A stretch of DNA of 64,000 nucleotides from a virus (IMGVR_UViG_3300032323_001119:1-64000); one strand, 5' to 3'. Shown: positions 687 through 27,253, counted from the first letter of the stretch. Made by a program: numbers and translations. The notes: generated by a model not told the origin, from the sequence alone.

Positions 687-719
687 TTTTATGACTCCCT
701 GTACTGCTTTATTTTTTTA

Positions 720-1277: not shown

Positions 1278-1336
1278 TGGCTACCCCCTATGTGAATTAC
1301 TTTACTTAGATAATTATACCGCAAAACATTCTAACG

Positions 1337-1962: not shown

Positions 1963-2002
1963 AATTTATTATATCCTTTTTTATACAGATCTGTCAACAC
2001 CA

Positions 2003-3580: not shown

Positions 3581-3589
3581 TAGAACTCC

Positions 3590-5770: not shown

Positions 5771-6225
5771 TATGAATTTCCTCCGTCGAGTGATGGAGCA
5801 TCAAAATCTTCTGATCCTCCCCCTCCTAGTATTGTATCTTTTATTTCAGCTTCTCCATTAAATAAACCTCCATCAAACAAAGTTTCTTCAACAAATGAAG
5901 GTCCATCTAGGTTACTTCCTGGATTTCCTCCGTCATAACCAATAATTTCTGGCAAAACTAGGCCAGGAGTTGATGGGTTGGAAAGTGACTTAAAGTCAAC
6001 TTGATTTTGAATATCAATTGTATGTACATCTCCATCAAAGGTATGAGTGTGCATGTAAAATGGAGTGGGATCAGTACTTGGTGGTGTAAGTTCTATCCAG
6101 ACATTGCCATTATGAACACGCAAATTTTTAGTCAAAGTGTTAATATAAACTTCACCAACTTGACCAAAGGCTGGGTCTTCTGACAAAGCTAAAAGTCTTA
6201 ATGGGACTAGCATTTGTCTAGACAT
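5770..6225 (-). CDS. Putative virion protein
   Basis: 151 aa; GEVYINT...LRVHNGNVW tail-fibre-like motif; DGG repeats. Confidence 0.6.
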   Translation of the reverse strand: MSRQMLVPLRLLALSEDPAFGQVGEVYINTLTKNLRVHNGNVWIELTPPSTDPTPFYMHTHTFDGDVHTIDIQNQVDFKSLSNPSTPGLVLPEIIGYDGGNPGSNLDGPSFVEETLFDGGLFNGEAEIKDTILGGGGSEDFDAPSLDGGNS

Positions 6226-6227
6226 AA

Positions 6228-7433
6228 TTAACCTACTACAACTACTCTATATTCTCCAGCTGATGGTGCAGAAGCAAAGTTAACAGTTACAGAGTTTACA
6301 CCTGATCTTTGAACATCTGCTTCTACCTGTGCAAAAGGAGTAAGAGCTTCAAATATTTGAACTGTGACATCAGTTGTTCCCAGATTATGGGTTATAGTGT
6401 ATGATGTTGCAGAAGATCCTAAAGTAGTTGCGTACTTTCTTGCAATAGCATGATAATCTGAACCATTGTTTGTTAATGTCCACTTGTCAGATGTTTCATT
6501 CCATAGAATTTCTACATCTGATTCTGTTCCACGCTCTACTGTTATTCCAGCATCTGTTGTTGGAGCTCCAGTAAAATTGCTATTAAGCTTTACTTTATTA
6601 TCTTCAATGTTAATCTGTGTAGTATTTACAGAATTAACAGTTCCAATTACATTTAAGTTTCCGCCAACCTGCAAATTACCAACAATTTCAACATCTTCTG
6701 GTAATCCAATTGTTACGGCAGCATTATGTCCGCTATTTGGTGATACAGTGATTTCATTTTCTGTGCCAACAATTGTAGCAACATAATCGCCTGTAGTTTG
6801 TTCATCTAAATCAATATCTTTTATAGATACAACGCCTGCATTTACATTAAAGTCTGCTGCTGCAAATGATGCAATACCTTTGTTTGTTGTAGATGCATCT
6901 TCTCCAGAAATTGTTATCTTTAGTCCACCGTCATTGGTGACATCAATTCCTTCTCCGCCTTCAATCTTTAATGTTTCGTTTAAAAGATTTACTTGAATTC
7001 CAGCAGCATCATCGTTATTGATTGAAAGTGTTGTAGCTACATCAACTTCTCCAGCTTCAGTAAGTCTACCTTGCTGATCTACTGTAAATGTAGGTATTTT
7101 TGTTTGTGATCCGTATGAGCCAGCATTTACTGCAGTATCATCTAAATCTAATGTTGTTACTCCTGTATTATCAACATATGTTTTTGTTAATCCGACTCCG
7201 CCTTCAACATATGTTCCAATTGCATCTGTAATAACTTCCACAGAAGCAGACATTGGCATCCATGGACCGTTAGGAGATGAAAGTCCATTGTAGTAGTACA
7301 TGACATTATTTGATGTGTCATAATAAACTTGACCAGATACTGGACTCGATGGAGCAGTTCCTAAGTTTTGAATCCTAGCATTGAGTAATTCATTTTTGTT
7401 TAAATCAATGCTTACTAAAAATTTTCTTGCCAT
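6228..7433 (-). CDS. Putative tail/virion protein
   Basis: GQVYYDT, IPTFTVDQQGRLT, GNLNVIGT...IEDN and THNLGT motifs shared with phage fibres. Confidence 0.7.
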   Translation of the reverse strand: MARKFLVSIDLNKNELLNARIQNLGTAPSSPVSGQVYYDTSNNVMYYYNGLSSPNGPWMPMSASVEVITDAIGTYVEGGVGLTKTYVDNTGVTTLDLDDTAVNAGSYGSQTKIPTFTVDQQGRLTEAGEVDVATTLSINNDDAAGIQVNLLNETLKIEGGEGIDVTNDGGLKITISGEDASTTNKGIASFAAADFNVNAGVVSIKDIDLDEQTTGDYVATIVGTENEITVSPNSGHNAAVTIGLPEDVEIVGNLQVGGNLNVIGTVNSVNTTQINIEDNKVKLNSNFTGAPTTDAGITVERGTESDVEILWNETSDKWTLTNNGSDYHAIARKYATTLGSSATSYTITHNLGTTDVTVQIFEALTPFAQVEADVQRSGVNSVTVNFASAPSAGEYRVVVVG

Positions 7434-7447
7434 TTTTTATCTCCTTT

Positions 7448-7885
7448 TTAGGACAGGTATGCTGTCCCCGAAAATGGCTGGGCCATTGTCAATGTTATTT
7501 GGTTAATACTATTATAGTCTATTCCCGTTTCTAATAAGTCTCCAGAGCTTGACTTAACAGATACGTTAGGGTTAAACTGCAAATTGTGATTTATCACTAC
7601 TGAATATATTCCGTTTACTGGACCAGTTATTTGACTCATTTCCCAAGAATACATATAGGATATTTGCTTGTCTAATACGAAGCTATTTTCCACGCTCCAA
7701 GAATCTGTCTCTAAAGACTTAGGGCCCCAGAATCTTGTTGTAATTGTGTCAAAATAAAAGTCCCCTGGGACACCAAGTGAGTTTGAAGGATTTCCTTCTC
7801 CACTGATAATGGTTCTTCCAGGGGCACCAGAAGCTCTTACTACTACTAACGGATTATTTTCAGTTACGATTAAGCGGGTTGCCAT
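7448..7885 (-). CDS. Putative virion protein
   Basis: G.PGDFYFDT motif; structural operon context. Confidence 0.55.
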   Translation of the reverse strand: MATRLIVTENNPLVVVRASGAPGRTIISGEGNPSNSLGVPGDFYFDTITTRFWGPKSLETDSWSVENSFVLDKQISYMYSWEMSQITGPVNGIYSVVINHNLQFNPNVSVKSSSGDLLETGIDYNSINQITLTMAQPFSGTAYLS

Positions 7886-8229
7886 TATAGGGTTACCGCC
7901 CTATTTAATGTAAGATATCCTTCTAGTAATCTAGTAACATTTACACTTGGATCTATTACAACTAAATCGTAAGCAGATTTTGGGTAAAATAGCTTTTTGG
8001 TTCTTTCAGCTGAAACAGATATTGAAAGTTTTCCAAGAGATGGGGTTATTGTGATTCCGTCTGTATGATCTAGTGTAAATGCTAATTTTTTCCCACCTTG
8101 AGTGTCTCTAACTTGCATTTTTGCTGTATGATGGTTTAGCTGTATTGGTTCGTTGTCTTCATCAAGGTACTGCACCTCAAAAGTAAACGTCGCGTTCTCG
8201 TCTACTTGAAAATTTTTTTGAGCTGCCAT
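7885..8229 (-). CDS. Conserved phage beta-sandwich structural/adaptor-like protein
   Basis: ATFTFEVQY...TAKMQVR...YDL...RLLEG motif pattern. Confidence 0.55.
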   Translation of the reverse strand: MAAQKNFQVDENATFTFEVQYLDEDNEPIQLNHHTAKMQVRDTQGGKKLAFTLDHTDGITITPSLGKLSISVSAERTKKLFYPKSAYDLVVIDPSVNVTRLLEGYLTLNRAVTL

Positions 8230-8296
8230 TTTTACCCCTAAAAAGAAAATACCCTTACACTATTTTAGCATAAGGGCATTCTCAATTGACTAATAA

Positions 8297-8539
8297 CTAC
8301 TTGCTCTTAAATCCAAAGCTCTGGTCGCTTGGGCTTAAAGCCTTCAGTATTACTGGAGCAATTGCTGCGAAGCCTGCTGCCACCAAATCTTTTGGATCTG
8401 TATTTCCAGTCATATAAAGTGCTGTTGCGGCTGCTAAAAATGCTCGCCCGTAAGTTCCTAATGCTGCTAGAATTTGTTCTTGCACTGTCACTTTCCCATC
8501 TTTATTTAAATCAGCTTTATCAAATTTTTTGATAGCCAT
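8297..8539 (-). CDS. Holin-like membrane protein with N-terminal EF-hand loop
   Basis: Two hydrophobic segments; DLNKDGKVTVQE fits the 12-residue EF-hand loop. Confidence 0.55.
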   Translation of the reverse strand: MAIKKFDKADLNKDGKVTVQEQILAALGTYGRAFLAAATALYMTGNTDPKDLVAAGFAAIAPVILKALSPSDQSFGFKSK

Positions 8540-8605
8540 TTTATCTTCTCCTCGTAGGCGGGTTGCCCATGAATTTTGGTTTTACCCAATACTATAATTC
8601 TACCA

Positions 8606-10540
8606 TTATGCAGATATATCTACAAGCTCACAATTACCGTCTGAACTACAGGCAAGTGTGGCGTTTGTGGAAGTTCCATCTTCTGTCTCATAAAAAGATA
8701 GGTCTTCCCATCTAATGTTTTCTGGCATTCTGGAAACAAGCTCGTCGTACTCTTCTTTGGTTATTTCTTGGTATGGAGCCTGCTTGTATGAATGATCTGA
8801 GTGAGGTAAAAATGAAATTCCTGAGCATTCGTCAAAATGTTTATAAACCCAGGCACCTACTTCCATCCATTCTTCTTCTTTAACAGAAACTGTAATTGAT
8901 GGCTTATGCTCACACCATGCTCTTTGATAAACAAGCCACATGTTTAGATGTTCAATTGCTGTTAAGTCATTTCTTGTTATTGCTCCTTGTGGTGCCTTTA
9001 CTGGAAACGAAAAAACATAAGTTTCATTTGGTTTCATTACATCGTCTTCGGTTGGTATTCCAACTTCTTTTAAAAATATTGAAATAGGATCAGCCTTAGA
9101 CCCACGTACAGTTCTAATATAATAATCTGAATGCCATGCATGCATTCCAGATGAAACTCCAACTAACTGTGACACTGTTCCTGATGGCTTAACGCATGTA
9201 ATTGCTGCTGACTCCTGAATTCCAATTTTTGACGACTCATCAGAGTTAGATAAACGTGCATGTTCTCTAGCTGTCATTAAAAAGGCCTCTAGTCCAATAA
9301 GGTCTTGTTTTCCAGACATAAAGTTGTGACCAAACTGCCCAGTTAGAGAAACTCCTAAAAGTCTTTCTTCTTCTGTGTTGTCTTTCCATATCTTTCTAAG
9401 ATATTTAAAATCTGTAAGTGTTGATTGCCATGTTCCCAAGACTGTGGCTAACCTAACTTTATTCAAAATGTCTTCTTTTGTATCAGACTCTCTAATAACT
9501 ACTTCAGACAAATTACAAAATTGGTAAGGCCTTAATATAATTTCAGAGCAAGGGTTGGTTCCATAGTGAATTTCAGGATCCCTGCGTCCGTATTTTGCTG
9601 CTTGTGCTTGTGCTGCAGCAACATTGTAGATTCCACGCTCACCAGACTTTGAATCGTAAAGAGATTTCCACTCAGTAATAAACTGTTCCATTGCTGGTTT
9701 GCGTGAGTATGCTACTGAGTTATTAGCAAGTGCTCTTTGTCCATTGTTTTCCCACCAGTTACCAGATTTAGCTGCAGCCATTTCAATATCATTAATGTTT
9801 GACAAAGATATCATTGCTGATCTGCGAACTCCACCTACCACAACGATTTCTCCAATTTTACACATTAGATCATGAGCCTCAATTGGCTTTAACTGTCTAC
9901 CAGCTGCTGCTTTAAACTTTGCAATTGTAAAATCAAAAAGATTTACCAGTGGCTGTGGACCAGAAGATCTTCCGCCCATAGTTTTCAATCTTGCTCCAGC
10001 TGGTCGAACTTTAGAAACATCAATCATTGGAATCTGACCAATCCACAATAGTGCAAGAAGTTCTCTATAAGCTTTTGCCCACCCTTGCTTTGAATCTTCA
10101 ACAGAAACTACTGTTTCTGACTTATCAAATGAGTCTGGGACGGCAGGAAGCTTATTTACATACTTATACTCAACAGAGAATCCAACACCAGTTCCACACA
10201 TAGAGATATACATTGCTTCATCAAAAGATCTTGGTGAATCTACTGGCAAGAATGAGCAGTTGTATCCAGCCACATTGTCTCTTGCAAGTGCTGGTCCAGC
10301 AGTCATTACGGAGCGCATTGATGGCATTATGTTTCTATCAAATACAGATTTTCTTAATTCTTCTACAAGACTTGAATCTGGCTCGTATGCATGGTTTTCA
10401 AAAAGATGATCAAGCATGAAATCAAAATATCTATCTACTGTTTCGCCCCATGTTTCACGACGATTTTCATCAGATATCCATCTTGCATATCGTGACAGTG
10501 CAATAAAGTTTTCGTATGGGTTTTCAATAGTATTTTTCAT
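8606..10540 (-). CDS. nrdJ: Class II (B12-dependent) ribonucleotide reductase
   Basis: YNCSF, GGVRRSA, TNPCSEI, CNLSE, TCVKPSGTVSQL and C-terminal Cys pair. Confidence 0.93.
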   Translation of the reverse strand: MKNTIENPYENFIALSRYARWISDENRRETWGETVDRYFDFMLDHLFENHAYEPDSSLVEELRKSVFDRNIMPSMRSVMTAGPALARDNVAGYNCSFLPVDSPRSFDEAMYISMCGTGVGFSVEYKYVNKLPAVPDSFDKSETVVSVEDSKQGWAKAYRELLALLWIGQIPMIDVSKVRPAGARLKTMGGRSSGPQPLVNLFDFTIAKFKAAAGRQLKPIEAHDLMCKIGEIVVVGGVRRSAMISLSNINDIEMAAAKSGNWWENNGQRALANNSVAYSRKPAMEQFITEWKSLYDSKSGERGIYNVAAAQAQAAKYGRRDPEIHYGTNPCSEIILRPYQFCNLSEVVIRESDTKEDILNKVRLATVLGTWQSTLTDFKYLRKIWKDNTEEERLLGVSLTGQFGHNFMSGKQDLIGLEAFLMTAREHARLSNSDESSKIGIQESAAITCVKPSGTVSQLVGVSSGMHAWHSDYYIRTVRGSKADPISIFLKEVGIPTEDDVMKPNETYVFSFPVKAPQGAITRNDLTAIEHLNMWLVYQRAWCEHKPSITVSVKEEEWMEVGAWVYKHFDECSGISFLPHSDHSYKQAPYQEITKEEYDELVSRMPENIRWEDLSFYETEDGTSTNATLACSSDGNCELVDISA

Positions 10541-10772
10541 GTGTCGCCTTTTCTTCCGCCTTACGGATTGATTGTTTTTTGAATGAGTTCTAAGTGTATC
10601 AAACTTTTTTATAAAAGAAAAGGAAAATTGTTTTTATCGTTGTTTTTTAGTTAACTATAATATATAATACTTACTATATATAATATATATTGATTTGTAT
10701 TGATTTGTTGACCCCCCGACCCCCCTATTGGAAGTATACTATTTAGATATTCTATGTCAAGAGAAAAATGAT

Positions 10773-10802
10773 TTGACATGTTCTTTGTTGCAATGGTATG
10801 AT
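10773..10802 (+). promoter_or_regulatory. SigA-type promoter for the transglycosylase gene
   Basis: TTGACA-N18-TATGAT with TG extension; a divergent TTGACA-N16-TATACT lies at 10760-10733 on the minus strand. Confidence 0.6.
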
Positions 10803-14165: not shown

Positions 14166-14239
14166 ACCTATATTGTATCATTTGACTGCATAAAAGTGCG
14201 TCGCCGAGAAGAACAACATTTAGTCAACTGTAATATATA

Positions 14240-14253
14240 GTTTCACGTGAAAC
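14240..14253. promoter_or_regulatory. parS: parS (ParB-binding) palindrome
   Basis: GTTTCACGTGAAAC, exact match to the actinobacterial/firmicute parS core; intergenic. Confidence 0.75.
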
Positions 14254-14316
14254 ACAATTGGGTAGTGTAACACAGAATGCACCGCAAAAGGGCTACAAGG
14301 GTCCTATAAGGACATT

Positions 14317-16494: not shown

Positions 16495-16945
16495 TAGTTC
16501 ATATTAAATTGCAGAATTATTCCGCATATATGTACTATGATAGCTACTACTCCGATCCAAATGATTAATTTCATTTCCCGCCCTTTATTAACTTCTGAAT
16601 GCAATTAACGCAAAAGCTTTCTAGTACGCCTTTTGAGTTTAATCTCTCAACGTATTTTGTGTTGTCACAGAAGTTACATTTCATAATATGAGTATAGCAT
16701 AATTCTGGTCAACTAGCATTTCATATTTTCTAAAATGTTAATATTTTTTTAATTTGTATGATACACGTATTTTATAGAAACGGACATTTGGTATAGTCCG
16801 CACATATTGAGCGTGAGCATACGGTCAATGTGATAGACCTCACAAAGTATTTTTTTGATTTGTCCCTAATGTCCGAATTGCGACTTGCAATTTGTCAGAC
16901 CCCCATGCAATAATTAAGGTATAACAAAAAGAAAGGAGCAATTAA

Positions 16946-17098
16946 ATGCTCACTCAAAAAACACTAGACGCAATCGTCTATGAATACCAACATGGTGGCG
17001 TTAAGTCTAACCACCCTGAATTAACTACCTATGAGCGCAAGGCTCTACTTAAGCACTTGTTCTCCCTCCCTACTTATTGCGCTTGTTGTGTGAGGTAA
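16946..17098 (+). CDS. Small early protein (50 aa)
   Basis: GAAAGGAG RBS; MLTQKTLDAIVY...YCACCVR (not in ORF track). Confidence 0.6.
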   Translation: MLTQKTLDAIVYEYQHGGVKSNHPELTTYERKALLKHLFSLPTYCACCVR

Positions 17099-17184
17099 CT
17101 CACACGACACACCCCCTCAACATCCCCATAATGTCAGACCTATCCGCTACAATTACAACATAACAACAACGAAAGAGGCACTAA

Positions 17185-17367
17185 ATGTCATACGCTTACT
17201 CATACGAAACTAACTCGGTCTCTAAATGGGAGACTATCCAATCAGATGTTGCAGATGCATACTCATACTTAGATGAGGTAGATGATGAGCAACCACCCGT
17301 TGATGATTTTGATGATGCAGATGATGAAGAACTAGCAAAACTATTCACACTAACTTGGGAGAACTAA
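17185..17367 (+). CDS. Small acidic early protein
   Basis: ACGAAAGAGG leader; D/E-rich. Confidence 0.65.
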   Translation: MSYAYSYETNSVSKWETIQSDVADAYSYLDEVDDEQPPVDDFDDADDEELAKLFTLTWEN

Positions 17368-17369
17368 TA

Positions 17370-17540
17370 ATGACTATCACTTACTCAATTTGGCAAGGCT
17401 CTCGCTTACTATCTATCGACAATGTAGCGCATGAGGTTAAGGCTATTGACCACCTAATCGAATCGCTTAACGCTAGCGAACTAGGTAAGAAAACAAAATT
17501 CACCGCTAATGTAATGTCTATCAAGGTAGGGGATAATTAA
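17370..17540 (+). CDS. Small early protein
   Basis: MTITYSIW...; stop overlaps next start (TAATG). Confidence 0.6.
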   Translation: MTITYSIWQGSRLLSIDNVAHEVKAIDHLIESLNASELGKKTKFTANVMSIKVGDN

Positions 17541-17909
17541 TGAGAAAATGTAAGATAGATGTATGCGATTCAACCGAACTAGTGTATAGCGGTGTAGATG
17601 CTTTCCTATTGGGTGTGCCAACCGAAACTTATTGCTATGATTGCTCTAACAATGGAGATGCACATAGAGAATTGCTAGAGGTAACTAACTAATGAATAGA
17701 CTACTAACTACACTAGTGCAATTGGCTATTGCTATCCCCGCCCTATATATGGGGCGCTTAATGTGGCACGAACTAAAGGCAGACCTAAGAGAGATGATGA
17801 GGGGCAACTAATGGAAGACCTATTCGGATTTGAAAAGGCGATTCAACTAGATCACCTTAACCTAGAACAACTAAAAGAACTAGAAAAGATTCTAGATAAA
17901 ATTAAATAA
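17540..17909 (+). CDS. Three coupled micro-ORFs (17540-17692, 17692-17811, 17811-17909)
   Basis: Each joined by a TAATG overlap; 50, 39 (hydrophobic) and 32 aa. Confidence 0.55.
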
Positions 17910-17939
17910 ATACGGCGTGTCGACTTGACAAAAGTTGGC

Positions 17940-17974
17940 ACCCGCACATAGCTGCGGGGTCGGGCGTGTCGTTA
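17940..17974 (+). repeat. 35-bp direct repeat, copy 1 (copy 2 at 19564-19598)
   Basis: acccgcacatagctgcggggtcgggcgtgtcgtta identical in both; contains a CCCGCA/TGCGGG hairpin. Confidence 0.9.
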
Positions 17975-18161
17975 TGAACATGTTATAAAATCCCCCGAAA
18001 TTTACGGCGTGTCGATTTGACAGACAAATCGGACATTTTTTATGTGATGTAAAACACATGACTTGAGCGTCTCACATCTTGGAATTACTGGTTAGTAATT
18101 AGATAAATGTCAGTCCCCTAATGTATAATGTCTACTATAACAACAACGAAAGAAGGTCACC

Positions 18162-18278
18162 ATGAACCTAGAGCAATTCAAGGCTCACGTTATCGCACAA
18201 CGTGAAGCAAGCAAGGCAGAAGCCTTGTCAGTCCTATCTGCTACAATTACCAAATCAACAACGAAAGAAGGCAACTAA
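18162..18278 (+). CDS. Micro-ORF (38 aa) containing the next promoter and leader
   Basis: ACGAAAGAAGG leader; MNLEQFKAHV...LSVLSATITKSTTKEGN. Confidence 0.5.
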   Translation: MNLEQFKAHVIAQREASKAEALSVLSATITKSTTKEGN

Positions 18279-18475
18279 TGTCAGCAAATGTCTACTCCGT
18301 AGAGAGTCTGCTAATCGGCAAGGCTTACAATTCCCGTTCCGTATCTGGCGAAATAATTGACGCAGAAAAAACCGATAAAGTTTGGTATGCGGATTGCGAT
18401 ACTTATCGCGTTCAGGTTAGACCACGCCACGGATTTAACGATACTTATCGTTATCTAGCGGTAAAAACTTCATAA
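18278..18475 (+). CDS. Small early protein
   Basis: Own promoter and leader. Confidence 0.65.
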   Translation: MSANVYSVESLLIGKAYNSRSVSGEIIDAEKTDKVWYADCDTYRVQVRPRHGFNDTYRYLAVKTS

Positions 18476-18566
18476 CTAAATAATCGAAACAGGGGCAGTT
18501 TAGAGAGTGTTCTCGCCCAATGTCGTAAGTAAGAACTCTCACCAATTTTTTAACGAAAGGAAAACT

Positions 18567-18731
18567 ATGTTAAACATAATCGACAAAACCGATTTCTATG
18601 AAATCGCAGATGAGCAACACTTTTGCTGTGATGAAAGTCAGTTTAAGTATTACTGTATCGAGCACCTAGAGTTTATGGGTTGCTACTTTTGCGGATTTGA
18701 CTATGACAAGGATTGCGAGGAACAACACTAA
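18567..18731 (+). CDS. Small Cys-rich early protein
   Basis: ACGAAAGG leader before ATG 18567. Confidence 0.6.
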   Translation: MLNIIDKTDFYEIADEQHFCCDESQFKYYCIEHLEFMGCYFCGFDYDKDCEEQH

Positions 18732-18905
18732 TGGGACACATTGAGTTTTTCCGCCTTGATGATGAAGGCGCTGGGTGGGTAGATTTGGATCAAGCCACTC
18801 CAGAGGAATTGCTAACTCTTGAGATAGGCTTATTTCAAGAGGGCGCCCTCTAATTTGTCAGACCCCTCTGCTACAATACTCTAAATAACTACGAAAGGGA
18901 AACTA

Positions 18906-19112
18906 ATGTATAAAGTAACTTGCCAGTATGACTTTGAGGAAAGCCCTCATTGGTCTGCAAACTACGAGGACGAATTCGAAGCGTGGAAATCTTTTTTCTC
19001 ATTCACCGACTGGGGAATGGCTAACGAATACTCAACTGTAAATATTTACACACCAGCATTGAAATGCTACACAAAAGTTTTTTATCGCAACGGAATGGTG
19101 GTAACGAAATGA
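18906..19112 (+). CDS. Small early protein
   Basis: Promoter 18856 and ACGAAAGG leader. Confidence 0.65.
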   Translation: MYKVTCQYDFEESPHWSANYEDEFEAWKSFFSFTDWGMANEYSTVNIYTPALKCYTKVFYRNGMVVTK

Positions 19113-19303
19113 TGACCCGTAAAGATTATGTAGCAACCGCAGAAATTCTAAAGTATGCAAGCAACAAAACGCACCCAGCGTTATTTTCTAAAATCGTAAA
19201 TGATTTTGCGGAAATGTTTGCAAAAGATAATCCTCGATTTGATGTCGTGAGATTTCACGAAGCCAGCAACTACACAACAATTTTTGGAAAGGTTGAAAAA
19301 TGA
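19109..19303 (+). CDS. Small early protein
   Basis: MMTRKDY...FAKDNPRFD..RF motif; similar motif at the C-terminus of 43384..43842. Confidence 0.65.
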   Translation: MMTRKDYVATAEILKYASNKTHPALFSKIVNDFAEMFAKDNPRFDVVRFHEASNYTTIFGKVEK

Positions 19304-19432
19304 TTTTAGAAATGTCAGCAATTTATTGTGAAGCGTGTGAGGACTCAGCGTTTATCGTTCAACATGAGGATATGATAGAAATTTCTGCGTGTGCTTGCGA
19401 ACAAGATTTGCAACAATTAGCGGAGTGGATAA

Positions 19433-19552
19433 ATGAACCTTAAAGAAAAAATAAAACGCATTCAGGAATTGCGGAGATCAAACGCCGCAACTCCTGTTCG
19501 CAATAAGAAAAAATACACACGCAAGCGCAAGCATAAAAATTCAGAGTATTGA
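19433..19552 (+). CDS. Small basic protein, ArfA-like tail
   Basis: GGAG RBS; ...LRRSNAATPVRNKKKYTRKRKH. Confidence 0.55.
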   Translation: MNLKEKIKRIQELRRSNAATPVRNKKKYTRKRKHKNSEY

Positions 19553-19806
19553 ATATTTATGCGACCCGCACATAGCTGCGGGGTCGGGCGTGTCGTTAAG
19601 TAGGTGATCAAAATCACCCTGGAATTTTTGGGCGTGTTGTAGAAAATGTCAGTGGGCCATGGTATTATTCTCTTAAATCTAACGAAAGGCTCATCCATGG
19701 ATTTTTATGATGAATACTATGAAACAGATATGATACGCCCAGACGCTAAGTCTTGCTATTGCACTAATCATTCTATTTGTACTAATTGTGTTAAGGGGTA
19801 TAACTA

Positions 19807-20529
19807 ATGACTAAACTAAAGCGCTCAAATGATAGAAAGGTGGCTAACCTTGTCACAAAAAATGGAAAGCAAGCCGCAATTGCCAATACATTCGGATTAC
19901 CTGCAGGAAAGGCTTATTCATGTCCTGGCGCTACGAGTATCTGCGAAAGTGTTTGCTATGCAGGCAAATTGGAAAAACTCTTCCCTGGTGTAAAAACTAA
20001 TCTATTGCACAATTGGGAATTGTTACGCAATGCAGACATGGATAGCATGTTGCTATTGCTTGATGAAATGATTGTAGAATTTGTTGCAGACTGTGAAAAG
20101 AAAGACGCCCCTAAGTTATTCCGTATACACTGGGACGGGGACTTCTTTAATGATACCTACGCATATGCCTGGAAGACTATTATCATGAACCACCCCGATG
20201 TTCAATTCTGGGTTTATACACGTGTAAAGTCTGCAGCACTTATTCTTAAGGATGTATCTAATCTGTCTCTTTACTATTCAACGGATGACGAGAATAAAGA
20301 AATAGCATTCGATTTGAAAACTAATTCTAAGGTCCGCCTTGCTTATCTAGGCAAGACATTCGCAGACACTGAGGGCACCATGAAAGAATTAACTGGTAAG
20401 CCTGGCGCTAAGTGTCCTGAGAATATGAAATCAATTCCGCTTATTAGCAATGCAGGGTCCGCATGTGTTTCATGTGGCCTATGTGTTTATGGTAAAGCAG
20501 ACATTCGATTCTCTGCGAGTAAAAAATAA
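19807..20529 (+). CDS. Gp88-like (radical-SAM-related) Fe-S protein
   Basis: CPGATSICESVCYA, FRIHWDGDF, WVYTR, C-terminal CxxCxxC. Confidence 0.75.
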   Translation: MTKLKRSNDRKVANLVTKNGKQAAIANTFGLPAGKAYSCPGATSICESVCYAGKLEKLFPGVKTNLLHNWELLRNADMDSMLLLLDEMIVEFVADCEKKDAPKLFRIHWDGDFFNDTYAYAWKTIIMNHPDVQFWVYTRVKSAALILKDVSNLSLYYSTDDENKEIAFDLKTNSKVRLAYLGKTFADTEGTMKELTGKPGAKCPENMKSIPLISNAGSACVSCGLCVYGKADIRFSASKK

Positions 20530-20814
20530 TGTATGAAGTTATTGGAGCTATTGTAGGATTCTTAATGATATTAACTTCCTTATTACCGTTTGCCCTTGTG
20601 TACTATTTATTTAAACACTTATAACGGCGTGTTGACTTGACAAGATCAAGTCAGCCCCCATATTTGAGGGGTTATCCACAGGTTTAAGTGGAGTTATCCA
20701 CAATCCCTGGAATTTTGTGATTAATCTCACAAAAGCTGCGACACGCCGAGGATGGATTAGGTAATGTCAGTGGGTAATGCTAAAATACTCTTATCCAACA
20801 ACGAAAGGTAACAA

Positions 20815-21039
20815 ATGCCAAATGTAATCACCGTTCCACACACAGTGGAGTTTGTCGCTACTATTGATTTAGATAAGATTGACTCCAACCTATTACCCAC
20901 CCTATTATCTTTATCTGAGGATGAACTAACAAAGATGTGTTCAGAAGCAACACACTCTGCACTAGACATAGCAGATGTATTAACAGTTGCTAACAAAGGT
21001 TATTCTTGGGCTGAACTATCTATCAAGAAGGGAAACTAA
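20815..21039 (+). CDS. Hypothetical early protein
   Basis: Promoter 20765 and CAACGAAAGG leader. Confidence 0.65.
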   Translation: MPNVITVPHTVEFVATIDLDKIDSNLLPTLLSLSEDELTKMCSEATHSALDIADVLTVANKGYSWAELSIKKGN

Positions 21040-21041
21040 TA

Positions 21042-21308
21042 ATGGGATACACAACAGCGTTATCTATTGCTGAGGACTTATCGCTAGAGGCAGGACTTGC
21101 TTATCACTTACAGGGTAATCATTACCCACCCGTTCCCGTCTCAATGGTGCAACCTTGCATAGATGCTATTGATGCGTTCTATGATGAGGAATACAGCCGT
21201 GAGATCAATTTACCTGAAGGTATAACTTGGAGAGGTCAGACTTCCTGCCCTGCGTCTGCGATAGTAGATGCCCACCACTTGGAAGCGTGGCTACCTGAGT
21301 ATGACTAA
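21042..21308 (+). CDS. Hypothetical early protein
   Basis: HLQGNHYPPVP motif; operon context. Confidence 0.65.
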   Translation: MGYTTALSIAEDLSLEAGLAYHLQGNHYPPVPVSMVQPCIDAIDAFYDEEYSREINLPEGITWRGQTSCPASAIVDAHHLEAWLPEYD

Positions 21309-21403
21309 GGTCACACAATAACTTTCTCAAATAATGAGATAGGGCTTGATAAATGTCAGCCCCCAATGCTACAATACTACCCTACACAGAAAGAAGGAAG
21401 CAA

Positions 21404-21586
21404 ATGACAGTACAAGATAAGTTGTATCAGGTTGGAGATTTATTCACCACCCTAAAGTCAAAAAAGACAGGTGTGATTAAAGAAATCCACCCACAGGCAT
21501 CTGGCTCGGTGCGTGTGTTGCTAGAAATGCCAAACAAGGAAACTCGCTGGACATCAGTATCAGCAAGCACCCTAGCAGGTAATTAG
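21404..21586 (+). CDS. Small SH3/KOW-like protein
   Basis: QVGDLF...TGVIKEI; start after AGAAGGAAG. Confidence 0.55.
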   Translation: MTVQDKLYQVGDLFTTLKSKKTGVIKEIHPQASGSVRVLLEMPNKETRWTSVSASTLAGN

Positions 21587-21659
21587 CATAGGGCAGGGGG
21601 GTTGTCAGACCCCCCTGCTATAATACTCTCAACAACAACCAACCAACGAAAGGTAACAA

Positions 21660-22076
21660 ATGTCAAGAGCAATCACAGTAAAGGTGGCAACACCAAAGGT
21701 AATCAAGGCTTTGGAAACAAAGTTAGCAACAATCAAGAAAGACTATGCAGAGCAAGGTGCAAACGAGGCTAAGTATGAAAAGGCTCGTAAGATTTGGCAG
21801 AAGGAACTTCAGGACTATGCAATCGCAAACATCAAGAAGTCAGAGAACCTTCGCACTTCTTACCGCTCTTGGAATAACACTCTCAACATTGACTTTGATT
21901 TGACAGTATCCGAAAAGGATTTGCCAAAAGAGCCTGAGCGTGATTTTGTAACAATGCACCAACACACATACAATGAATTAGTTGAGGACATCACAAATGC
22001 TCTCACAATTCTAAAGATGACAGATGAGGAAACAGTAAATGCTTCTACAATGAAGCAAATTGCTCGTTATCTCTAA
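21660..22076 (+). CDS. Hypothetical early protein
   Basis: Promoter 21603; AACCAACGAAAGG leader. Confidence 0.7.
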   Translation: MSRAITVKVATPKVIKALETKLATIKKDYAEQGANEAKYEKARKIWQKELQDYAIANIKKSENLRTSYRSWNNTLNIDFDLTVSEKDLPKEPERDFVTMHQHTYNELVEDITNALTILKMTDEETVNASTMKQIARYL

Positions 22077-22085
22077 CTAATCCAA

Positions 22086-22113
22086 CGACCTGAGTATGTC
22101 GCCAAACTGCTCA
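22086..22113 (+). ncRNA. H-type pseudoknot motif, copy 1
   Basis: CGAC-C-TGAGTA-T-GTCG-CCAAAC-TGCTCA. Confidence 0.6.
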
Positions 22114-22148
22114 CACCTTCGGGTGTAACTACTAACAAAGGTAAAGCA

Positions 22149-22376
22149 ATGCGTTTCAAAATTGAAATGTACGATGAAGTAAAACAAAATGATTTAACAA
22201 TCTATTCAGAAGAGGGCTATGATAACGAAAGCCTTAAAGAACTTGTCTTCTCAAACCTAAAGAGGTTTGATGGAAATGTTAAAGCTTTTGTCTATGATCA
22301 AAAAAATAAAAAGAAAACATCAGCGGCGTTTGTTCCTATGGAAACAGTCAATTACGTAAAATCATTGTCAAAGTAA
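22149..22376 (+). CDS. Hypothetical protein
   Basis: AAAGG RBS. Confidence 0.6.
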   Translation: MRFKIEMYDEVKQNDLTIYSEEGYDNESLKELVFSNLKRFDGNVKAFVYDQKNKKKTSAAFVPMETVNYVKSLSK

Positions 22377-22380
22377 AATG

Positions 22381-22410
22381 AGCGGGGCAGTTATTCTGCC
22401 CCGCTTGTTT
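22381..22410 (+). terminator. Intrinsic terminator
   Basis: AGCGGGGCAG-ttatt-CTGCCCCGCT then TGTTT. Confidence 0.7.
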
Positions 22411-22582
22411 GGCCCGCAATAATGTGGGGGGTTATCCACAGGTTTAAGTGAGCTTGTGGAAAACCCCTGAAATTATGTGAGATTACTCACACTGATCAAT
22501 TCGGACATATTGTAACTAATCCTAGACAATGTCAGTGGGGTCTGTTATACTTACAACTAATCAAACGAAAGGTAATAAATAT

Positions 22583-23590
22583 ATGGCTCACAATCTCGAA
22601 GTCGAAAACGGCGAAGTTGCATTTGCATTGCGTGGCGCTCCTGCTTGGCACAATCTTGCAAATCGCATCTTTACAAAAGATGAAGAAGTTACAACTCAAA
22701 CAATGCTTGATGAAGCAAAACTTTCTAATTGGAATGTTCGCTTGTCTCCATTGACCGACCACATTTCAGAATCTTGGAATGATGTATCGAATGCTCAATT
22801 AGTTATTCGTGATAACCCATTTAATAAGGGTACTGATGTTCTCGCAACTGTTGGTAAGCGTTACAAGCCTGTGCAGAATGAAGAACTATTCGCATTCGCT
22901 GATGCAATTCACGATGCAAATGCTGATTGCCGTTGGGAATCTGCTGGTTCTCTTAAGAAGGGCAAAGTTGTATTCGGAACTGTGGATATTCCTCGCACAA
23001 TGGTTCTTGACCCACAAGGTGCAAACGATGAAACTAAACTCTATCTAATCGTATGGACATCTCACGACGGGTCTGTTGCTGTTCAGGCTGCTGTTACTCC
23101 TGTTCGTGTTGTATGCCAAAACACTTTGAACCTTGCAATGCGTAATGCAAAGCAATCTTTCAAGATTCGCCACACGCAATCTGTTGAAGGTCGCATTCAA
23201 GTTGCTCGTGAAACTCTTGGGCTTGCTCTTGGTTACTTTGATGAATTCGAAGCCGAAGCAAAGTCTCTCTACTCACAAGCAATTACCGATGCTGAATTCT
23301 CAAAGTTGATTCAGACAATTTATCCTAAGCCAGATAAAGATGCTGCAAAGGTTGCGCTAACTAAGTGGGAGAACAAGGTTGTTCTGCTTGATGACCTTTA
23401 CCACAATTCACCAACGAATGCTAATATCAAGGGAACAAAGTGGGGTGCATTCAATGCACTTACTGAGCGCCTTGATTACTATCGTTCAGGTCGTGGCAAT
23501 TCTGAAACACTAATGGCTGGTGCATCAGGGTTTGACCCAATTCTAACCGCAGAAAAAAATAAAATTAAGAAATTAATTTCTGCGTTTTAA
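22583..23590 (+). CDS. DUF932 family protein
   Basis: MAHNLE...PAWH, YKPVQN, ESAGSL, SHDGS, TPVRVVCQNTL, WGAFNA. Confidence 0.85.
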   Translation: MAHNLEVENGEVAFALRGAPAWHNLANRIFTKDEEVTTQTMLDEAKLSNWNVRLSPLTDHISESWNDVSNAQLVIRDNPFNKGTDVLATVGKRYKPVQNEELFAFADAIHDANADCRWESAGSLKKGKVVFGTVDIPRTMVLDPQGANDETKLYLIVWTSHDGSVAVQAAVTPVRVVCQNTLNLAMRNAKQSFKIRHTQSVEGRIQVARETLGLALGYFDEFEAEAKSLYSQAITDAEFSKLIQTIYPKPDKDAAKVALTKWENKVVLLDDLYHNSPTNANIKGTKWGAFNALTERLDYYRSGRGNSETLMAGASGFDPILTAEKNKIKKLISAF

Positions 23591-23595
23591 TAAAT

Positions 23596-23624
23596 AAATC
23601 CTGAGCAAGATTTAAAACTGCTCA
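23596..23624 (+). ncRNA. H-type pseudoknot motif, copy 2
   Basis: AAATC-C-TGAGCA-A-GATTT-AAAAC-TGCTCA. Confidence 0.6.
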
Positions 23625-23630
23625 CCATTT

Positions 23631-23704
23631 GGTCTGTTAGCTCAGTTGGTTAGAGCGCTACCCTGTCACGGTAGAGGTCGACGGTTCAAGTCCGTTACAG
23701 ATCG
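23631..23704 (+). tRNA. tRNA-Asp(GUC)
   Basis: CTACC-CTGTCAC-GGTAG anticodon arm; canonical D/T arms. Confidence 0.9.
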
Positions 23705-23840
23705 CAAATTATATTTATGCAGATCAATGCATAACTATGCGCCCGCAATATTAAGGGAAAAAAAATTGTGTTAAGTGTCACATAAAAAATTCCCTGGAAT
23801 CTGTAGACAAATGTCAGTGTGGTCCTGTATAATTCTCGTC

Positions 23841-24500
23841 ATGACCAACTATCAGAAGTATACATGGGTGTGCACAGGCGACTGTGACGCATTGATCGAA
23901 TACACAATTAAAGATGGATATGGTTGGCCAGCGGGTGTGATGGACCTCACATGCCGTTGCAACTCTAACTGTACATTATTGTCAGTGGAAGATGCTACAA
24001 TACCGTATACAGATTCACCCCTACCAACGAAAGAGGAACAAATGGAAACAACAATTGGCTCGGATGCATTCCACTCGACTGCAGTCGAATACAATCCTGA
24101 TTTACTAGTTACATATAAAGTAATTAAGGGTTACTCTGACCCTGAATACACAACATCTAAAGTTACATCTCTTGAATGGGATTTGCATAACGGGCGCCAA
24201 GCACAGAAGCGTGTTGGTCTTCTTGAGTCTAACATTAACACAGTTAAAGATATTATCTCTGAGGCATATGCTGATTCAGATGACCAAGATACTCTCCGTG
24301 CAATTGCCGAAGCGCTTAGCATTGAATTAACTAGAACTGTAGAGTTCACCGCAACTATCGAGGTTAGCGGAACAATTGACCTCAACCTTCTTGAAGACTA
24401 TGATTTTGAAACAGAAATCACAGACAACCTTTATGTTGATTCACAGAGTGGAAACATTGAAATTGGCGATACTGAAATCTGTTATGTGAGGGAAGCATAA
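23841..24500 (+). CDS. Hypothetical protein (leaderless start; internal in-frame start at 24042)
   Basis: ATG 7 nt after TATAAT; second promoter (23980) and leader precede ATG 24042. Confidence 0.6.
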   Translation: MTNYQKYTWVCTGDCDALIEYTIKDGYGWPAGVMDLTCRCNSNCTLLSVEDATIPYTDSPLPTKEEQMETTIGSDAFHSTAVEYNPDLLVTYKVIKGYSDPEYTTSKVTSLEWDLHNGRQAQKRVGLLESNINTVKDIISEAYADSDDQDTLRAIAEALSIELTRTVEFTATIEVSGTIDLNLLEDYDFETEITDNLYVDSQSGNIEIGDTEICYVREA

Positions 24501-24715
24501 TGTATTTCGAACTCACCGCTCCTAATAGGCTCTCCATGGAGAGAGCCTATTGGGATGCACATATCATTGGACTGGACCCTACTGTAATGTCAGCATTGAC
24601 TTTCAACATTGGAACTGGTAGTATTGAGAAGGTAAGTCGTATTCGTGATAAGTATAACTTGATTGAAAGTTATACATCAGACTATGAGCCAACAGAAATT
24701 TATAATAGGAGATAA
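24500..24715 (+). CDS. Hypothetical protein
   Basis: TAATG coupling. Confidence 0.6.
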   Translation: MYFELTAPNRLSMERAYWDAHIIGLDPTVMSALTFNIGTGSIEKVSRIRDKYNLIESYTSDYEPTEIYNRR

Positions 24716-24716
24716 T

Positions 24717-24863
24717 ATGTCAGACTACAAAGATGGTTTTGAGGACGGGTACAAGTTTGCTCGTGAAGAGATGATGGAGAAGTTATCAGAGATTGATATC
24801 GCCGATATCGACTCTTGGATTCTTGACCGTCTTTCTGAGATGATTGAAGGCGGGACACTATGA
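24717..24863 (+). CDS. Hypothetical protein
   Basis: AGGAG RBS; YKDGFEDGY. Confidence 0.6.
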   Translation: MSDYKDGFEDGYKFAREEMMEKLSEIDIADIDSWILDRLSEMIEGGTL

Positions 24864-25069
24864 CATCTGAGGACCTAACAAGATGGATTGGCTGTGATCA
24901 ATGCCATACAGCTCAAGCAATGTATATGGTCAAGCTAGTAGAGGGTGAGCTATTCTTTTGTGGCCACCACTACAACGCAAGCAAGGCAGGCCTTGACAAG
25001 GTCGCATACGAAGTGATAGAATTAAACAAAATCGAAGAAGCGGTACCTCAACTAGAAACGGCGGAATAA
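24860..25069 (+). CDS. Zn-finger-like protein
   Basis: CDQC...LFFCGHH. Confidence 0.65.
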   Translation: MTSEDLTRWIGCDQCHTAQAMYMVKLVEGELFFCGHHYNASKAGLDKVAYEVIELNKIEEAVPQLETAE

Positions 25070-25070
25070 A

Positions 25071-25466
25071 ATGGGCGACAGAGCAAACTTTGGATTCAAG
25101 CAATCTAATGATGAAACAATCGTATTATACGGTCACTGGGCTGGACATGAAATGCTTGCTAATCTTGCAGAAGCAGTAGAGAAAGCACGTTCACGCTGGA
25201 CCGATGAATCATATGCAACACGTATTGTTGTATCTAATTTAATTGGAGATAACTGGCATGAGACCACGGGTTGGGGTCTAACGGTTAACAACATTCTAGA
25301 CAACGAGCACAAAATTCCTGTTATCGATTGGCGCTCAGGGACCTTTAGTCTTCATGAGGAAGCCTCGTGGGAAGAAGATACCAAGGTTAAAGGTATGATG
25401 GATGAACCAATGTTCACAATGACATTAGATTCATTTGTTAATAAGTACTCTAGGGTAAACGCATAA
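25071..25466 (+). CDS. Hypothetical protein
   Basis: MGDRAN...LYGHWAG motif. Confidence 0.7.
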   Translation: MGDRANFGFKQSNDETIVLYGHWAGHEMLANLAEAVEKARSRWTDESYATRIVVSNLIGDNWHETTGWGLTVNNILDNEHKIPVIDWRSGTFSLHEEASWEEDTKVKGMMDEPMFTMTLDSFVNKYSRVNA

Positions 25467-25475
25467 ATTAATTCA

Positions 25476-25559
25476 AGGGTGCCTCTAGCAGTCACACGAC
25501 GTGGCCAGGGGTTAAATAAAGCATCGGATTTTACTTTCGTTGGTTACCGATAGCAGCCT
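25476..25559 (+). ncRNA. Putative structured antisense RNA (loop complementary to early-gene leaders)
   Basis: Closing stem AGGGTGC/GCAGCCT (one mismatch), GTCAC/GTGGC hairpin, ATCGG/CCGAT hairpin with loop containing TTACTTTCGTTGGTT. Confidence 0.5.
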
Positions 25560-25761
25560 GTGTAAGAACTTGACAAATAGATCAATGGCCCGCAAAAAAT
25601 AAGGGTAACATATTTTGTTTACGGGGTCAATATAAAAAACCCTGGAATTTTGTGATCTTGACCACATAGCTTGGAAAATGTGGTGTGAAACACACCCAAA
25701 TAGTATTCCAATTGTCAGTGGTCCAATGTATAATTATCACATATCAACGAAAGGATATAAT

Positions 25762-26535
25762 ATGCCAAATTGGGTATATAACACATTGACTATTCAAGGA
25801 CCTAAGTCTGAGATAGATATGATTAAAGATAGATTGAATAAGCCTTTTACATTAGCACAAGAGACATTCGGTATGGGTGATATTTCTTCTATGGGTTTCC
25901 CCACCAAAATTAAGCAGGTTGAATATAATAATCCTGTCTTTGCTTTCTACAATATACACTCATATAAAGATGACGGTATTACTGATGAAGAGTATGCCTG
26001 CCAGCCTGACCGTTCAGGTGTTGACATGAAAGACCCTCAATGGTTTGCTAAGTCTGTTGCATTCGCAAAGACTCAGAAGGATTGGTATTCTTGGAACAAC
26101 TCTAATTGGGGAACTAAGTGGGATGTTGCTGTATCTGATGATGACCAGTATCCAAACACAGAACTACTTGAATATAAATCAGATGGTGATGATAATTGGC
26201 TTGTCTACAAATATGAAACTGCTTGGTCACCTGCTGTAACTATTCTAACTAAACTATCTAATCTTGTTCCGAACTGCCTGCTCACATTAGAGTATGAGGA
26301 GGAAACAGGTTGGGGTGGAGAGTATGAGATTGTCCGTGGTGATGTTAAAACTATTCTAGAATATGAAAACCGCTGCTACGCTTGCCAGTCTTTTGATACA
26401 TTAGATTATTGTGAAGATGACTGCGGTGAATTTTGCTCCGAATGTAATCAAGGCTCTTGGCAAGATGAGGTGGCTATGAAAGAATGTCAGACCCACATGG
26501 TATTATTGGAATCTAAAGAAAAGGCGGATGCATAA
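25762..26535 (+). CDS. YubB/DUF1281-like ferredoxin-fold protein
   Basis: MPNWVYNTL, DWYSWNNSNWGTKWD, YETAWSP. Confidence 0.75.
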   Translation: MPNWVYNTLTIQGPKSEIDMIKDRLNKPFTLAQETFGMGDISSMGFPTKIKQVEYNNPVFAFYNIHSYKDDGITDEEYACQPDRSGVDMKDPQWFAKSVAFAKTQKDWYSWNNSNWGTKWDVAVSDDDQYPNTELLEYKSDGDDNWLVYKYETAWSPAVTILTKLSNLVPNCLLTLEYEEETGWGGEYEIVRGDVKTILEYENRCYACQSFDTLDYCEDDCGEFCSECNQGSWQDEVAMKECQTHMVLLESKEKADA

Positions 26536-26747
26536 TGGAAGCATTTACAGATACAGTTGGAGAACATATCCTTGGAGCAATTCAAGTAGATATTGAGCAA
26601 CATCTATTTGAGCAATGGAACAATGCTAATTTAGATGAGGGAGAAGCATATGCTGAATATAAGTTTATGCAATTTGCTCCTGATAGCCTAAAGCAATCAT
26701 ACAATGAATACTATGGCTATATTGAGGGAGATGAGTTTCTATTATGA
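26535..26747 (+). CDS. Hypothetical protein
   Basis: TAATG coupling. Confidence 0.6.
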   Translation: MEAFTDTVGEHILGAIQVDIEQHLFEQWNNANLDEGEAYAEYKFMQFAPDSLKQSYNEYYGYIEGDEFLL

Positions 26748-26883
26748 TTACATCACAAGAACTCATTGATTACATGTATGATGACAACTTAATCCATTTT
26801 GACGACAGAGATACATCAGATGATTGTGATTGTCACATTCATATAACACTTAATACTATGATTAAATATATGGAGGCAATTGA

Positions 26884-27069
26884 ATGCTAGGTTATGAGAT
26901 GTCTGATATTAATGAGATGATTAATGCTGTACATGATGCTAAGTTATTCTATCTTAGGTCCCCGTCCGATTTGATCGATAAGGAGCCTTTAATTAAAAGC
27001 TTGGAAAAGACAAATGATTTTCTTCAAGGCTTGTGGGCAGAGGGGTATTTTGATGGCTACCAAGACTAG
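26884..27069 (+). CDS. Hypothetical protein
   Basis: GGAGG RBS; LQGLWAEGYF. Confidence 0.6.
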   Translation: MLGYEMSDINEMINAVHDAKLFYLRSPSDLIDKEPLIKSLEKTNDFLQGLWAEGYFDGYQD

Positions 27070-27253
27070 TACATTTATGGAGTATCTAAAGATACATCTA
27101 ATTAGTTTAGAACAAGACTTAGAACAGATTGATTATGTAAATAGTCATCATTTCTATAGAGTCAAAGAGGCTGAAATTGCAAATACGAAACACATTTTGT
27201 CAGTGGCTACTGATATAATGAACTCTTCTAACGAAAGGTATAACAATGAATAG
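27053..27253 (+). CDS. Hypothetical protein
   Basis: Start after AGAGGGG; contains promoter 27198. Confidence 0.55.
   Translation: MATKTSTFMEYLKIHLISLEQDLEQIDYVNSHHFYRVKEAEIANTKHILSVATDIMNSSNERYNNE

Follow-up and report, generated by a model that had tools for sequence, protein, structure and literature searches.

Class I promoters of the lac type in Escherichia coli and the Crp/GlxR sites of actinobacteria have in common a 16-bp palindrome that lies upstream of the promoter and recurs in steps of one helical turn. This palindrome, TGTGA-N6-TCACA, is the site of CRP proteins conserved across phyla, including Mycobacterium Crp and Corynebacterium GlxR (PMC10187061). Another kind of host input is known from the mycobacterial PafBC promoters, which work by "sigma adaptation" and carry a GTC element at about -26, an N10 spacing to TA(N3)T and no -35 element; nearly all actinobacterial species have PafBC, which single-stranded DNA activates, and its in vivo motif was given by Muller et al. 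as tGTCgg(N10)tA(N3)T (PMC8635444). Here we describe a block of small genes, in an abundant, uncultured lake-water virus from IMG/VR (IMGVR_UViG_3300032323_001119; 110,437 bp, with terminal-repeat ends), in which CRP-type palindromes stand in helical phase with PafBC-type promoters. The window that we analyzed is the first 64 kb of this genome. Compared to the known class I sites, the phage, which appears to be of lytic type, has about 11 sites in one block and a PafBC-type core instead of a -35/-10 promoter. Compared to the mycobacterial PafBC promoters, its element is TGTCAG rather than tGTCgg and occurs in 15 copies, many of them with an upstream palindrome.

Host-regulator sites on virulent phages are known already, as are class I CRP promoters and PafBC promoters. 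In the Bacillus phages phi29 and Nf, Spo0A boxes place sites of a host global regulator at the early promoters of a virulent phage, and host state gates infection (PMC2731898). Those boxes overlap promoters or origins and repress, whereas the boxes described here lie upstream, are phased, and point to a different regulator family. The PeSL cassettes of T4-type phages carry many small nonessential genes, each with a stem-loop and a strong repeated promoter, and are exchanged between relatives (PMC2839356), but they combine a plain sigma-70 promoter with a terminator and have no phased palindrome, DnaA boxes or PafBC-type core. The terminal-repeat blocks of Jay2Jay and other cluster BE1 phages (10.8 kb), which have been compared with those of T5 and SPO1, also consist of short cassettes with their own promoters and contain the word CGGACA (PMC5764925). 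In contrast to the present block, however, Jay2Jay has ordinary -35/-10 promoters and no CRP-type boxes, PafBC-type promoters or DnaA boxes. A phage on which these elements are combined in a phased array has apparently not been published, as our literature searches found nothing of the kind.

The small-gene block lies on the plus strand between 16.9 and 28.6 kb and holds about 35 small genes in short cassettes, each with its own promoter. Its layout suggests that these are probably the host-takeover, or early, genes. The promoters are as follows.

16893..27219, plus strand: 15 promoters of the form TGTCAG-N10-TAnnnT, without a conserved -35 element and each followed by a leader containing ACGAAAGG; TGTCAG starts at 16893, 17132, 18108, 18226, 18856, 19647, 20765, 21354, 21603, 22530, 23812, 23980, 25713, 26485 and 27198

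The conserved unit is (A/T)(A/T)TGTCAG, followed by (T/A)(G/C)(G/C) and then by TGnTAnAAT. The -35 position is uninformative, and positions -9 to -2 relative to TGTCAG hold nearly no information. The spacing between TGTCAG and TAnnnT is N10 in 14 cases, against 0-2 cases for each of the other spacings among 6-14 bp. With its GTC-containing -26 element, N10 spacing, TA(N3)T hexamer and lack of a -35 element, the TGTCAG core matches, at the level of sequence, a PafBC-type hybrid promoter. We also considered TGTCAG as a shifted -35 element or as the reverse of TTGACA, and rejected both because the upstream positions are uninformative and the N10 spacing fits the PafBC motif.

A CRP-type box stands upstream of ten of the 15 promoters. 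The boxes are listed below, with distances from box centre to TGTCAG.

16829..16844: perfect box TGTGATAGACCTCACA, 56.5 bp from the TGTCAG at 16893
17089..17104: perfect box, overlapping the stop codon of the open reading frame (ORF) 16946-17098, 35.5 bp from the TGTCAG at 17132
18043..18058: box with one mismatch, 57.5 bp from the TGTCAG at 18108
19603..19618: variant box GGTGATCAAAATCACC with the GTGA-N6-TCAC core intact, overlapping CCCTGGAAT, 36.5 bp from the TGTCAG at 19647
20716..20731: perfect box of the off-phase class, 41.5 bp from the TGTCAG at 20765
21300..21315: box with one mismatch, overlapping the end of ORF 21042-21308, 46.5 bp from the TGTCAG at 21354
22476..22491: perfect box of the DUF932 gene, 46.5 bp from the TGTCAG at 22530
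23767..23782: box with one mismatch, 37.5 bp from the TGTCAG at 23812
23936..23951: perfect box inside coding sequence, 36.5 bp from the internal promoter at 23980
25651-25666 and 25679-25694: two weaker boxes (one and two mismatches, respectively) with centers 28 bp apart, 54.5 and 26.5 bp from the TGTCAG at 25713

The variant box at 19603 is an eleventh, additional to the ten reported by the first-pass annotation of this sequence; relatives have a better form, TGTGAT..ATCACC, in the same place. Boxes that overlap gene ends or lie within coding sequence (17089, 21300, 23936) still keep their distance to the promoter.

The palindromes are real and confined to the region that the first-pass annotation had flagged, although it counted four perfect copies and there are five (16829, 17089, 20716, 22476 and 23936). 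These are the only perfect copies of TGTGA-N6-TCACA in the whole 110,437-bp genome, where first-order Markov simulations predict 0.16 by chance. All five, spanning 16.8-24 kb, fall inside the flagged region, which makes up 8.1% of the genome (P = 3.5e-6). Allowing at most one mismatch gives 11 sites genome-wide, nine of them (five perfect and four with one mismatch) in the region (binomial P = 7e-9). At up to two mismatches the count falls to chance level (36 seen versus 37 expected window-wide), and sites of this quality were therefore accepted only with other supporting evidence.

The agreement of the boxes with a CRP/GlxR consensus, also proposed in the annotation, extends beyond the arms. 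Like the CRP/GlxR-type site, the phage boxes are 16-bp inverted repeats with a conserved GT(N10)AC core (consensus from PMC10187061). In a logo of 252 distinct boxes from relatives, position 6 is T, G or C (A in 2/252) and position 11 is A, C or G (T in 4/252), while the center is free. This preference is symmetric and CRP-like, and it lies outside the core that was used to find the boxes.

Recalculating from the coordinates exactly reproduced the ten center-to-TGTCAG distances of the annotation (26.5, 35.5, 36.5, 37.5, 41.5, 46.5, 46.5, 54.5, 56.5 and 57.5 bp). In the phage genome alone (n = 10), the distances are phased with a Rayleigh R of 0.67 (p = 0.01 at 10 bp). For the related loci, the box-to-promoter spacers were grouped by sequence similarity, so that orthologues were not counted repeatedly. 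The first 81 sources (80 related loci and the phage) form 56 spacer groups, with R = 0.67 at 10 bp (p ~1e-11). Using perfect boxes only, 161 related loci yield 64 non-homologous spacer groups, with R = 0.71 at 10 bp and 0.73 at 10.5 bp (p ~1e-15); R declines for periods below 9 bp and above 12 bp, and the distances peak at 26.5, 36.5, 46.5, 56.5 and 67.5 bp. The stepping of about 10 bp first noticed in one genome therefore holds as a periodicity of 10-10.5 bp throughout these groups. At least six unrelated spacer sequences share the distance of 46.5 bp, hence the ladder does not reflect a single module copied repeatedly. The same test gave no comparable 10-10.5 bp signal for DnaA boxes, CCCTGGAAT, CGGACAT, GGCGTGTCG or TTGAGCGT. 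Phasing is a property of the palindrome alone.

A search with the DUF932 protein retrieved 284 related viral stretches, the best 80 of which are at least 93% identical in DUF932, and a pattern scan gave many more than these 284 among the matches listed. Boxes are kept in hundreds of related phages, with the arms fixed and the center free. The small-gene blocks of relatives share between 0 and 80% of their sequence with the phage genome, at about 70-80% identity, and have as many as 8 perfect boxes and 15 TGTCAG promoters per block; the layout is retained even in two loci whose similarity nearly vanishes at the protein level as well. At the DUF932 promoter, a box with at most one mismatch is present at 46.5 bp in 81/81 loci. 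An alignment of 52 distinct DUF932 upstream sequences shows TGTGA and TCAC without variation and the final A with hardly any, whereas the N6 center and the flanks vary. The other invariant or nearly invariant blocks in these sequences are GGGGTT[AT]TCCACA, a second DnaA box, CCCTGGAAT, ATTCGGACATAT, TGTCAG, the -10 element and ACGAAAGG.

By its gene content, the virus is a phage of an actinobacterial host. It encodes a WhiB protein (45132-45305, minus strand), so that the phage-borne whiB mentioned by the annotation is indeed present, as well as a mycobacteriophage GP88-family protein. Its large terminase (53841-55655, minus strand) has up to 65% identity to Streptomyces phage terminases, and its DUF932 protein (22583-23587) is about 50% identical to a gene product of Jay2Jay and other cluster BE1 phages (family Stanwilliamsviridae). 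Two genes of the small-gene block, DUF932 and GP88, have counterparts in the Jay2Jay repeat, at 50-54% identity. In BE1 phages, the DUF932 gene lies within a direct terminal repeat of about 11 kb, and the G+C content of these phages is about 20% lower than that of their hosts (PMC5764925), so the host of the present phage (G+C about 38%) need not match its AT-richness. Six-frame searches found no integrase, HTH_3 repressor or sigma factor in the phage, which suggests a lytic lifestyle.

These features lead us to favor a reading, to which we give an even chance, in which PafBC-type promoters are acted on by a host dimer of the Crp/GlxR type, bound on one face of the helix. Each short cassette of the block would be driven by its own PafBC-type promoter, with TGTCAG at about -28 to -23. 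In actinobacteria, promoters of this kind are read by the host housekeeping RNA polymerase only when PafBC, switched on by single-stranded DNA, inserts itself between the DNA and sigma region 4. A dimeric host regulator of the CRP/FNR family, a Crp/GlxR orthologue, would occupy the palindromes, always on one face of the helix, and would touch the PafBC-RNA polymerase complex or bend the DNA towards it. It would thereby supply a second input that depends on host state, with stimulation likelier than repression, and at two promoters paired DnaA boxes further upstream would be added to it. The boxes lie upstream of the core and not over it, a position from which a face-dependent activating or architectural action is easier to envisage than steric repression. 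On this evidence, the onset of infection is probably tied to host regulators; we infer the binding protein, the sign of its effect and its timing. The composite arrays of host-factor sites that the annotation had proposed are strengthened by the PafBC-type core, the paired DnaA boxes and the absence of matching domains from the phage, while the part of that proposal concerning WhiA is not, as described below. The sensing of host cAMP and cell-cycle state, which the annotation also put forward, is conjectural.

Several points weigh against a host Crp/GlxR regulator. Five of the 15 promoters are box-less, and in a comparison made for activator dependence the box-bearing promoters had neither weaker cores nor poorer -35 regions than the box-less ones. 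Nothing within the sequence therefore suggests that activity requires the box, and the sign of its effect, activation or repression, is not indicated by core strength. The phasing has exceptions, with four spacer groups off phase at 41.5-42.5 bp; these comprise two spacer types, one of which has a second, in-phase box 25 bp further upstream. The geometry also departs from that of E. coli, where class I CRP sites are centered at -61.5, -71.5, -82.5 and -92.5. Assuming a transcription start 7 bp past the -10 hexamer, the start sites being predicted only, the phage boxes are nominally centered at -54.5, -64.5, -74.5 and -84.5, which is 2-3 bp from the E. coli ladder. A straighter path of the upstream DNA has been reported for the PafBC complex (PMC8635444), so a geometry differing from that of E. 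coli would be unsurprising. The status of the block as the earliest genes is taken from its layout. The homologous terminal repeat of Jay2Jay has neither boxes nor PafBC-type promoters, though Streptomyces has Crp. Finally, most of the small early proteins are without a recognizable fold or family, so a reader encoded by the phage itself is possible.

Such a reader is the most serious alternative, though we regard it as a tentative one: the palindrome would be the operator of a dimeric phage protein of unrecognized fold, made early or delivered with the virion, which times or tunes the cassettes, and its likeness to the CRP site would be convergent or coincidental. This would account for the constant co-occurrence of boxes and TGTCAG promoters across a wide phage clade and for the lack of boxes in the Streptomyces relatives despite the Crp of their host, and the majority of the roughly 35 block ORFs, being without a family, leave room for it. 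The spacers moreover contain CGGACAT and GGCGTGTCG, words without a known host reader, and CGGACA is common to the Streptomyces BE1 phages, which suggests family-specific readers. The searches for a phage protein of this kind, however, turned up no HTH, CRP-like or other DNA-binding family genome-wide. Six-frame searches of the phage gave no HTH_Crp_2, cNMP-binding, HTH_3, sigma region 4_2, WYL, DnaA domain IV or integrase match. Pfam searches with 96 proteins of the window showed, among the best 25 of 51 matched families, no regulator other than WhiB and an Lsr2-like protein. The 33 block ORFs, searched individually with Pfam and against PHROGs, contain no known regulator except the Lsr2-like protein; the only ones recognized at all are GP88, DUF932, DUF7455, an Api92-like domain and the Lsr2-like protein.

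The gene content of the block is highly variable among relatives, which means that a phage reader must be among its few conserved genes. The best conserved with a never-boxed promoter (box-less in 77/77 relatives) encodes a 138-aa early protein at 21660-22073, which is conserved throughout the clade and comprises 4,287 clusters at 90% identity (280 representatives at 50%). Its predicted structure has a high confidence (pLDDT 95.5) and consists of a 46-residue helix, a hairpin and two helices, and neither a fold match in the PDB nor an HTH or other DNA-binding fold was found for this model. The predicted fold lowers the probability of a phage factor without removing it, because most of the small proteins are uncharacterized. 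A few JGI records label the 21660-22073 protein "predicted nucleic acid-binding protein". Coincidence would also have to explain that the ten specified bases and positions 6 and 11 all match the CRP consensus, which is much to ask. We place the host reader ahead of the phage reader because CRP proteins of distant phyla have retained this very site.

It is improbable that the boxes, the DnaA boxes and the orphan TGTC words are mainly decoys that titrate host regulators off the chromosome as phage DNA accumulates. Each genome copy has roughly 11 sites of high quality, a number that probably doubles if the block is part of a terminal repeat as in BE1, and these would serve such an end; consensus-grade sites bind tightly, and small streamlined hosts may hold few regulator molecules. 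Yet a sponge needs neither the fixed helical phase nor the single box per promoter that are seen, and the other 90% of the genome is without sites. The sponge offered by the first-pass annotation as a second possibility is accordingly not supported as stated, since it leaves the helical phasing unexplained.

Cassette shuffling of the PeSL kind clearly happens, because the upstream module of a given gene and its distance from the box change from one relative to the next, and neighboring genes differ between close relatives. It is nevertheless very unlikely that the repeated upstream blocks are chiefly recombination substrates with the palindrome as a passenger, an arrangement with a published precedent in the PeSL cassettes (PMC2839356). 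Spacers without homology have arrived at one common set of distances, and within an orthologous site the arms are conserved while center and flanks drift; both observations point to selection on the site itself. Shuffling and regulation can also coexist.

Returning to a host Crp/GlxR regulator on PafBC-type promoters, a bolder and more doubtful form of this proposal is that the host-takeover block is built wholly from host grammar, i.e. PafBC promoters, phased Crp/GlxR sites and sometimes DnaA boxes. The entering phage DNA might then be the inducing signal, with cAMP and replication status setting the gain. Multi-input, enhancer-like control of this kind, if true, is not known to have been described for any phage. 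One conserved protein of the block falls into more than 4,000 clusters at 90% identity, an indication of the abundance of the clade, and abundant lake phages would then couple the first minutes of infection to nutrition (through cAMP) and to DNA damage or single-stranded DNA. A virulent phage would be using host global regulators as activator inputs, as opposed to the repressors exemplified by Spo0A in phi29, and the PafBC sigma-adaptation mechanism would extend to viruses. The same core with a box at 26, 36, 46 or 56 bp would further provide natural graded promoter parts for actinobacteria.

The spacers between boxes and promoters, and the sequences just upstream, contain further words, listed here.

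20672..20702, plus strand: two direct DnaA boxes TTATCCACA, at 20672 and 20694, immediately upstream of CCCTGGAAT and the box at 20716
22432..22463: DnaA boxes, TTATCCACA on the plus strand and TTTTCCACA at 22455 on the minus strand
19617..19625, plus strand: CCCTGGAAT word, also at 20705, 23792 and 25640; variant CCCTGAAAT at 22465
22502..22508, plus strand: CGGACAT, also at 16781, 18030 and 28320, and at 16869 on the minus strand
17914, 17963 and 18006, plus strand: GGCGTGTCG words, which flank a hairpin at 17940-17958; more at 19587, 19631 and 20626, and at 20739 on the minus strand

Paired DnaA boxes adjoin two of the CRP-type boxes. They conform to the DnaA-box 9-mer TTWTNCACA, which works in either orientation, and TTATCCACA occurs three times on the plus strand of the genome, each time in the region. 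In the 52 distinct DUF932 upstream sequences, the first DnaA box is invariant, while the second flips between close relatives (TGTGGATAA/TGTGGAAAA versus TTATCCACA), keeps its position and is a DnaA box either way. Such a change of orientation at a kept position would be expected if the site is read by a monomer, for example DnaA.

The recurring spacer motifs and CCCGCA hairpins of the annotation are likewise real and confined to the region, as are TTGAGCGT and a TTACTGGTTAGTAA palindrome. The assignment of one of these motifs to WhiA is weak, however. The bare pentamer, GACAC, which we take to be the WhiA motif, is little enriched in the region (GACAC 8/30, GTGTC 6/78), and the conserved unit is a longer word of at least 9 bases, GGCGTGT[CT]G, which occurs 7 times in the genome, 7/7 in the region, and is often extended to TCGGGCGTGTCG. 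The TGTC core of this word could equally well fit the GTC triplet read by PafB, as an orphan PafB-type element. The CCCTGGAAT word usually lies 2 nt upstream of a box, and 4/4 of its genome copies are in the region, compared to 5/9 for a looser pattern. An ECF-type promoter (GGAAT-N18-GTT) within CCCTGGAAT was considered and rejected, as the downstream GTT is absent.

On the plus strand, 4/4 copies of CGGACAT are in the region. Reading through the Jay2Jay terminal repeat (1-10,800), we found CGGACA in about 15 of 17 intergenic regions, between the terminator hairpin and the promoter. Since Jay2Jay has CGGACA but not the PafBC-type core, the CRP-type boxes or the DnaA boxes, CGGACA(T) is an old, family-wide word, and the other three elements belong to the freshwater lineage. 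An identical 34-nt unit, consisting of the CCCGCA hairpin CCCGCACATAGCTGCGGG followed by GTCGGGCGTGTCGTTA, occurs twice, at 17940-17973 and 19564-19597. This duplication is consistent with cassette boundaries having been copied or exchanged.

One ORF (23841-24500) encloses the internal promoter at 23980 together with its box at 23936 and an ACGAAAG leader at 24027, and an ATG at 24044 is in frame with it. This gene may have a long form with a Cys-rich N-terminal part and a short form, or it may be two genes fused. In the intergenic region at 14239-14254, AGTTTCACGTGAAACA forms a palindrome resembling parS: its 14-bp core (GTTTCACGTGAAAC) is perfect, and it departs at one position from the 16-bp parS consensus. 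By its sequence, it is another host-type site on the phage.

With regard to origin, megablast against cultured phages returned no match, Rfam gave tRNA as its sole match, and a literature search on Nanopelagicales and the cAMP receptor protein found nothing. In a protein atlas, the WhiB protein was placed among viral clusters only. Searching for the host with the GMP-reductase-like protein of the phage, in one scan of a genome collection, gave a 2.8-kb contig (JBILQZ010000225.1) as the sole match. This contig belongs to a Sediminibacterium metagenome-assembled genome from Lake Mendota and encodes a protein 92% identical to the phage IMPDH/GMP-reductase-like protein (51718-52758); in all likelihood it is a piece of phage DNA that was wrongly binned with a Bacteroidota genome. 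On the minus strand between 29,300 and 64,000, Pfam identifies host-like cargo comprising a catalase-peroxidase-type peroxidase, a glutathione peroxidase, thioredoxin, Hsp20 and the IMPDH/GMP-reductase domain, together with RecA, ribonucleotide reductase and several 2OG-Fe(II) oxygenases. Eight tRNA genes lie within the 64-kb window.

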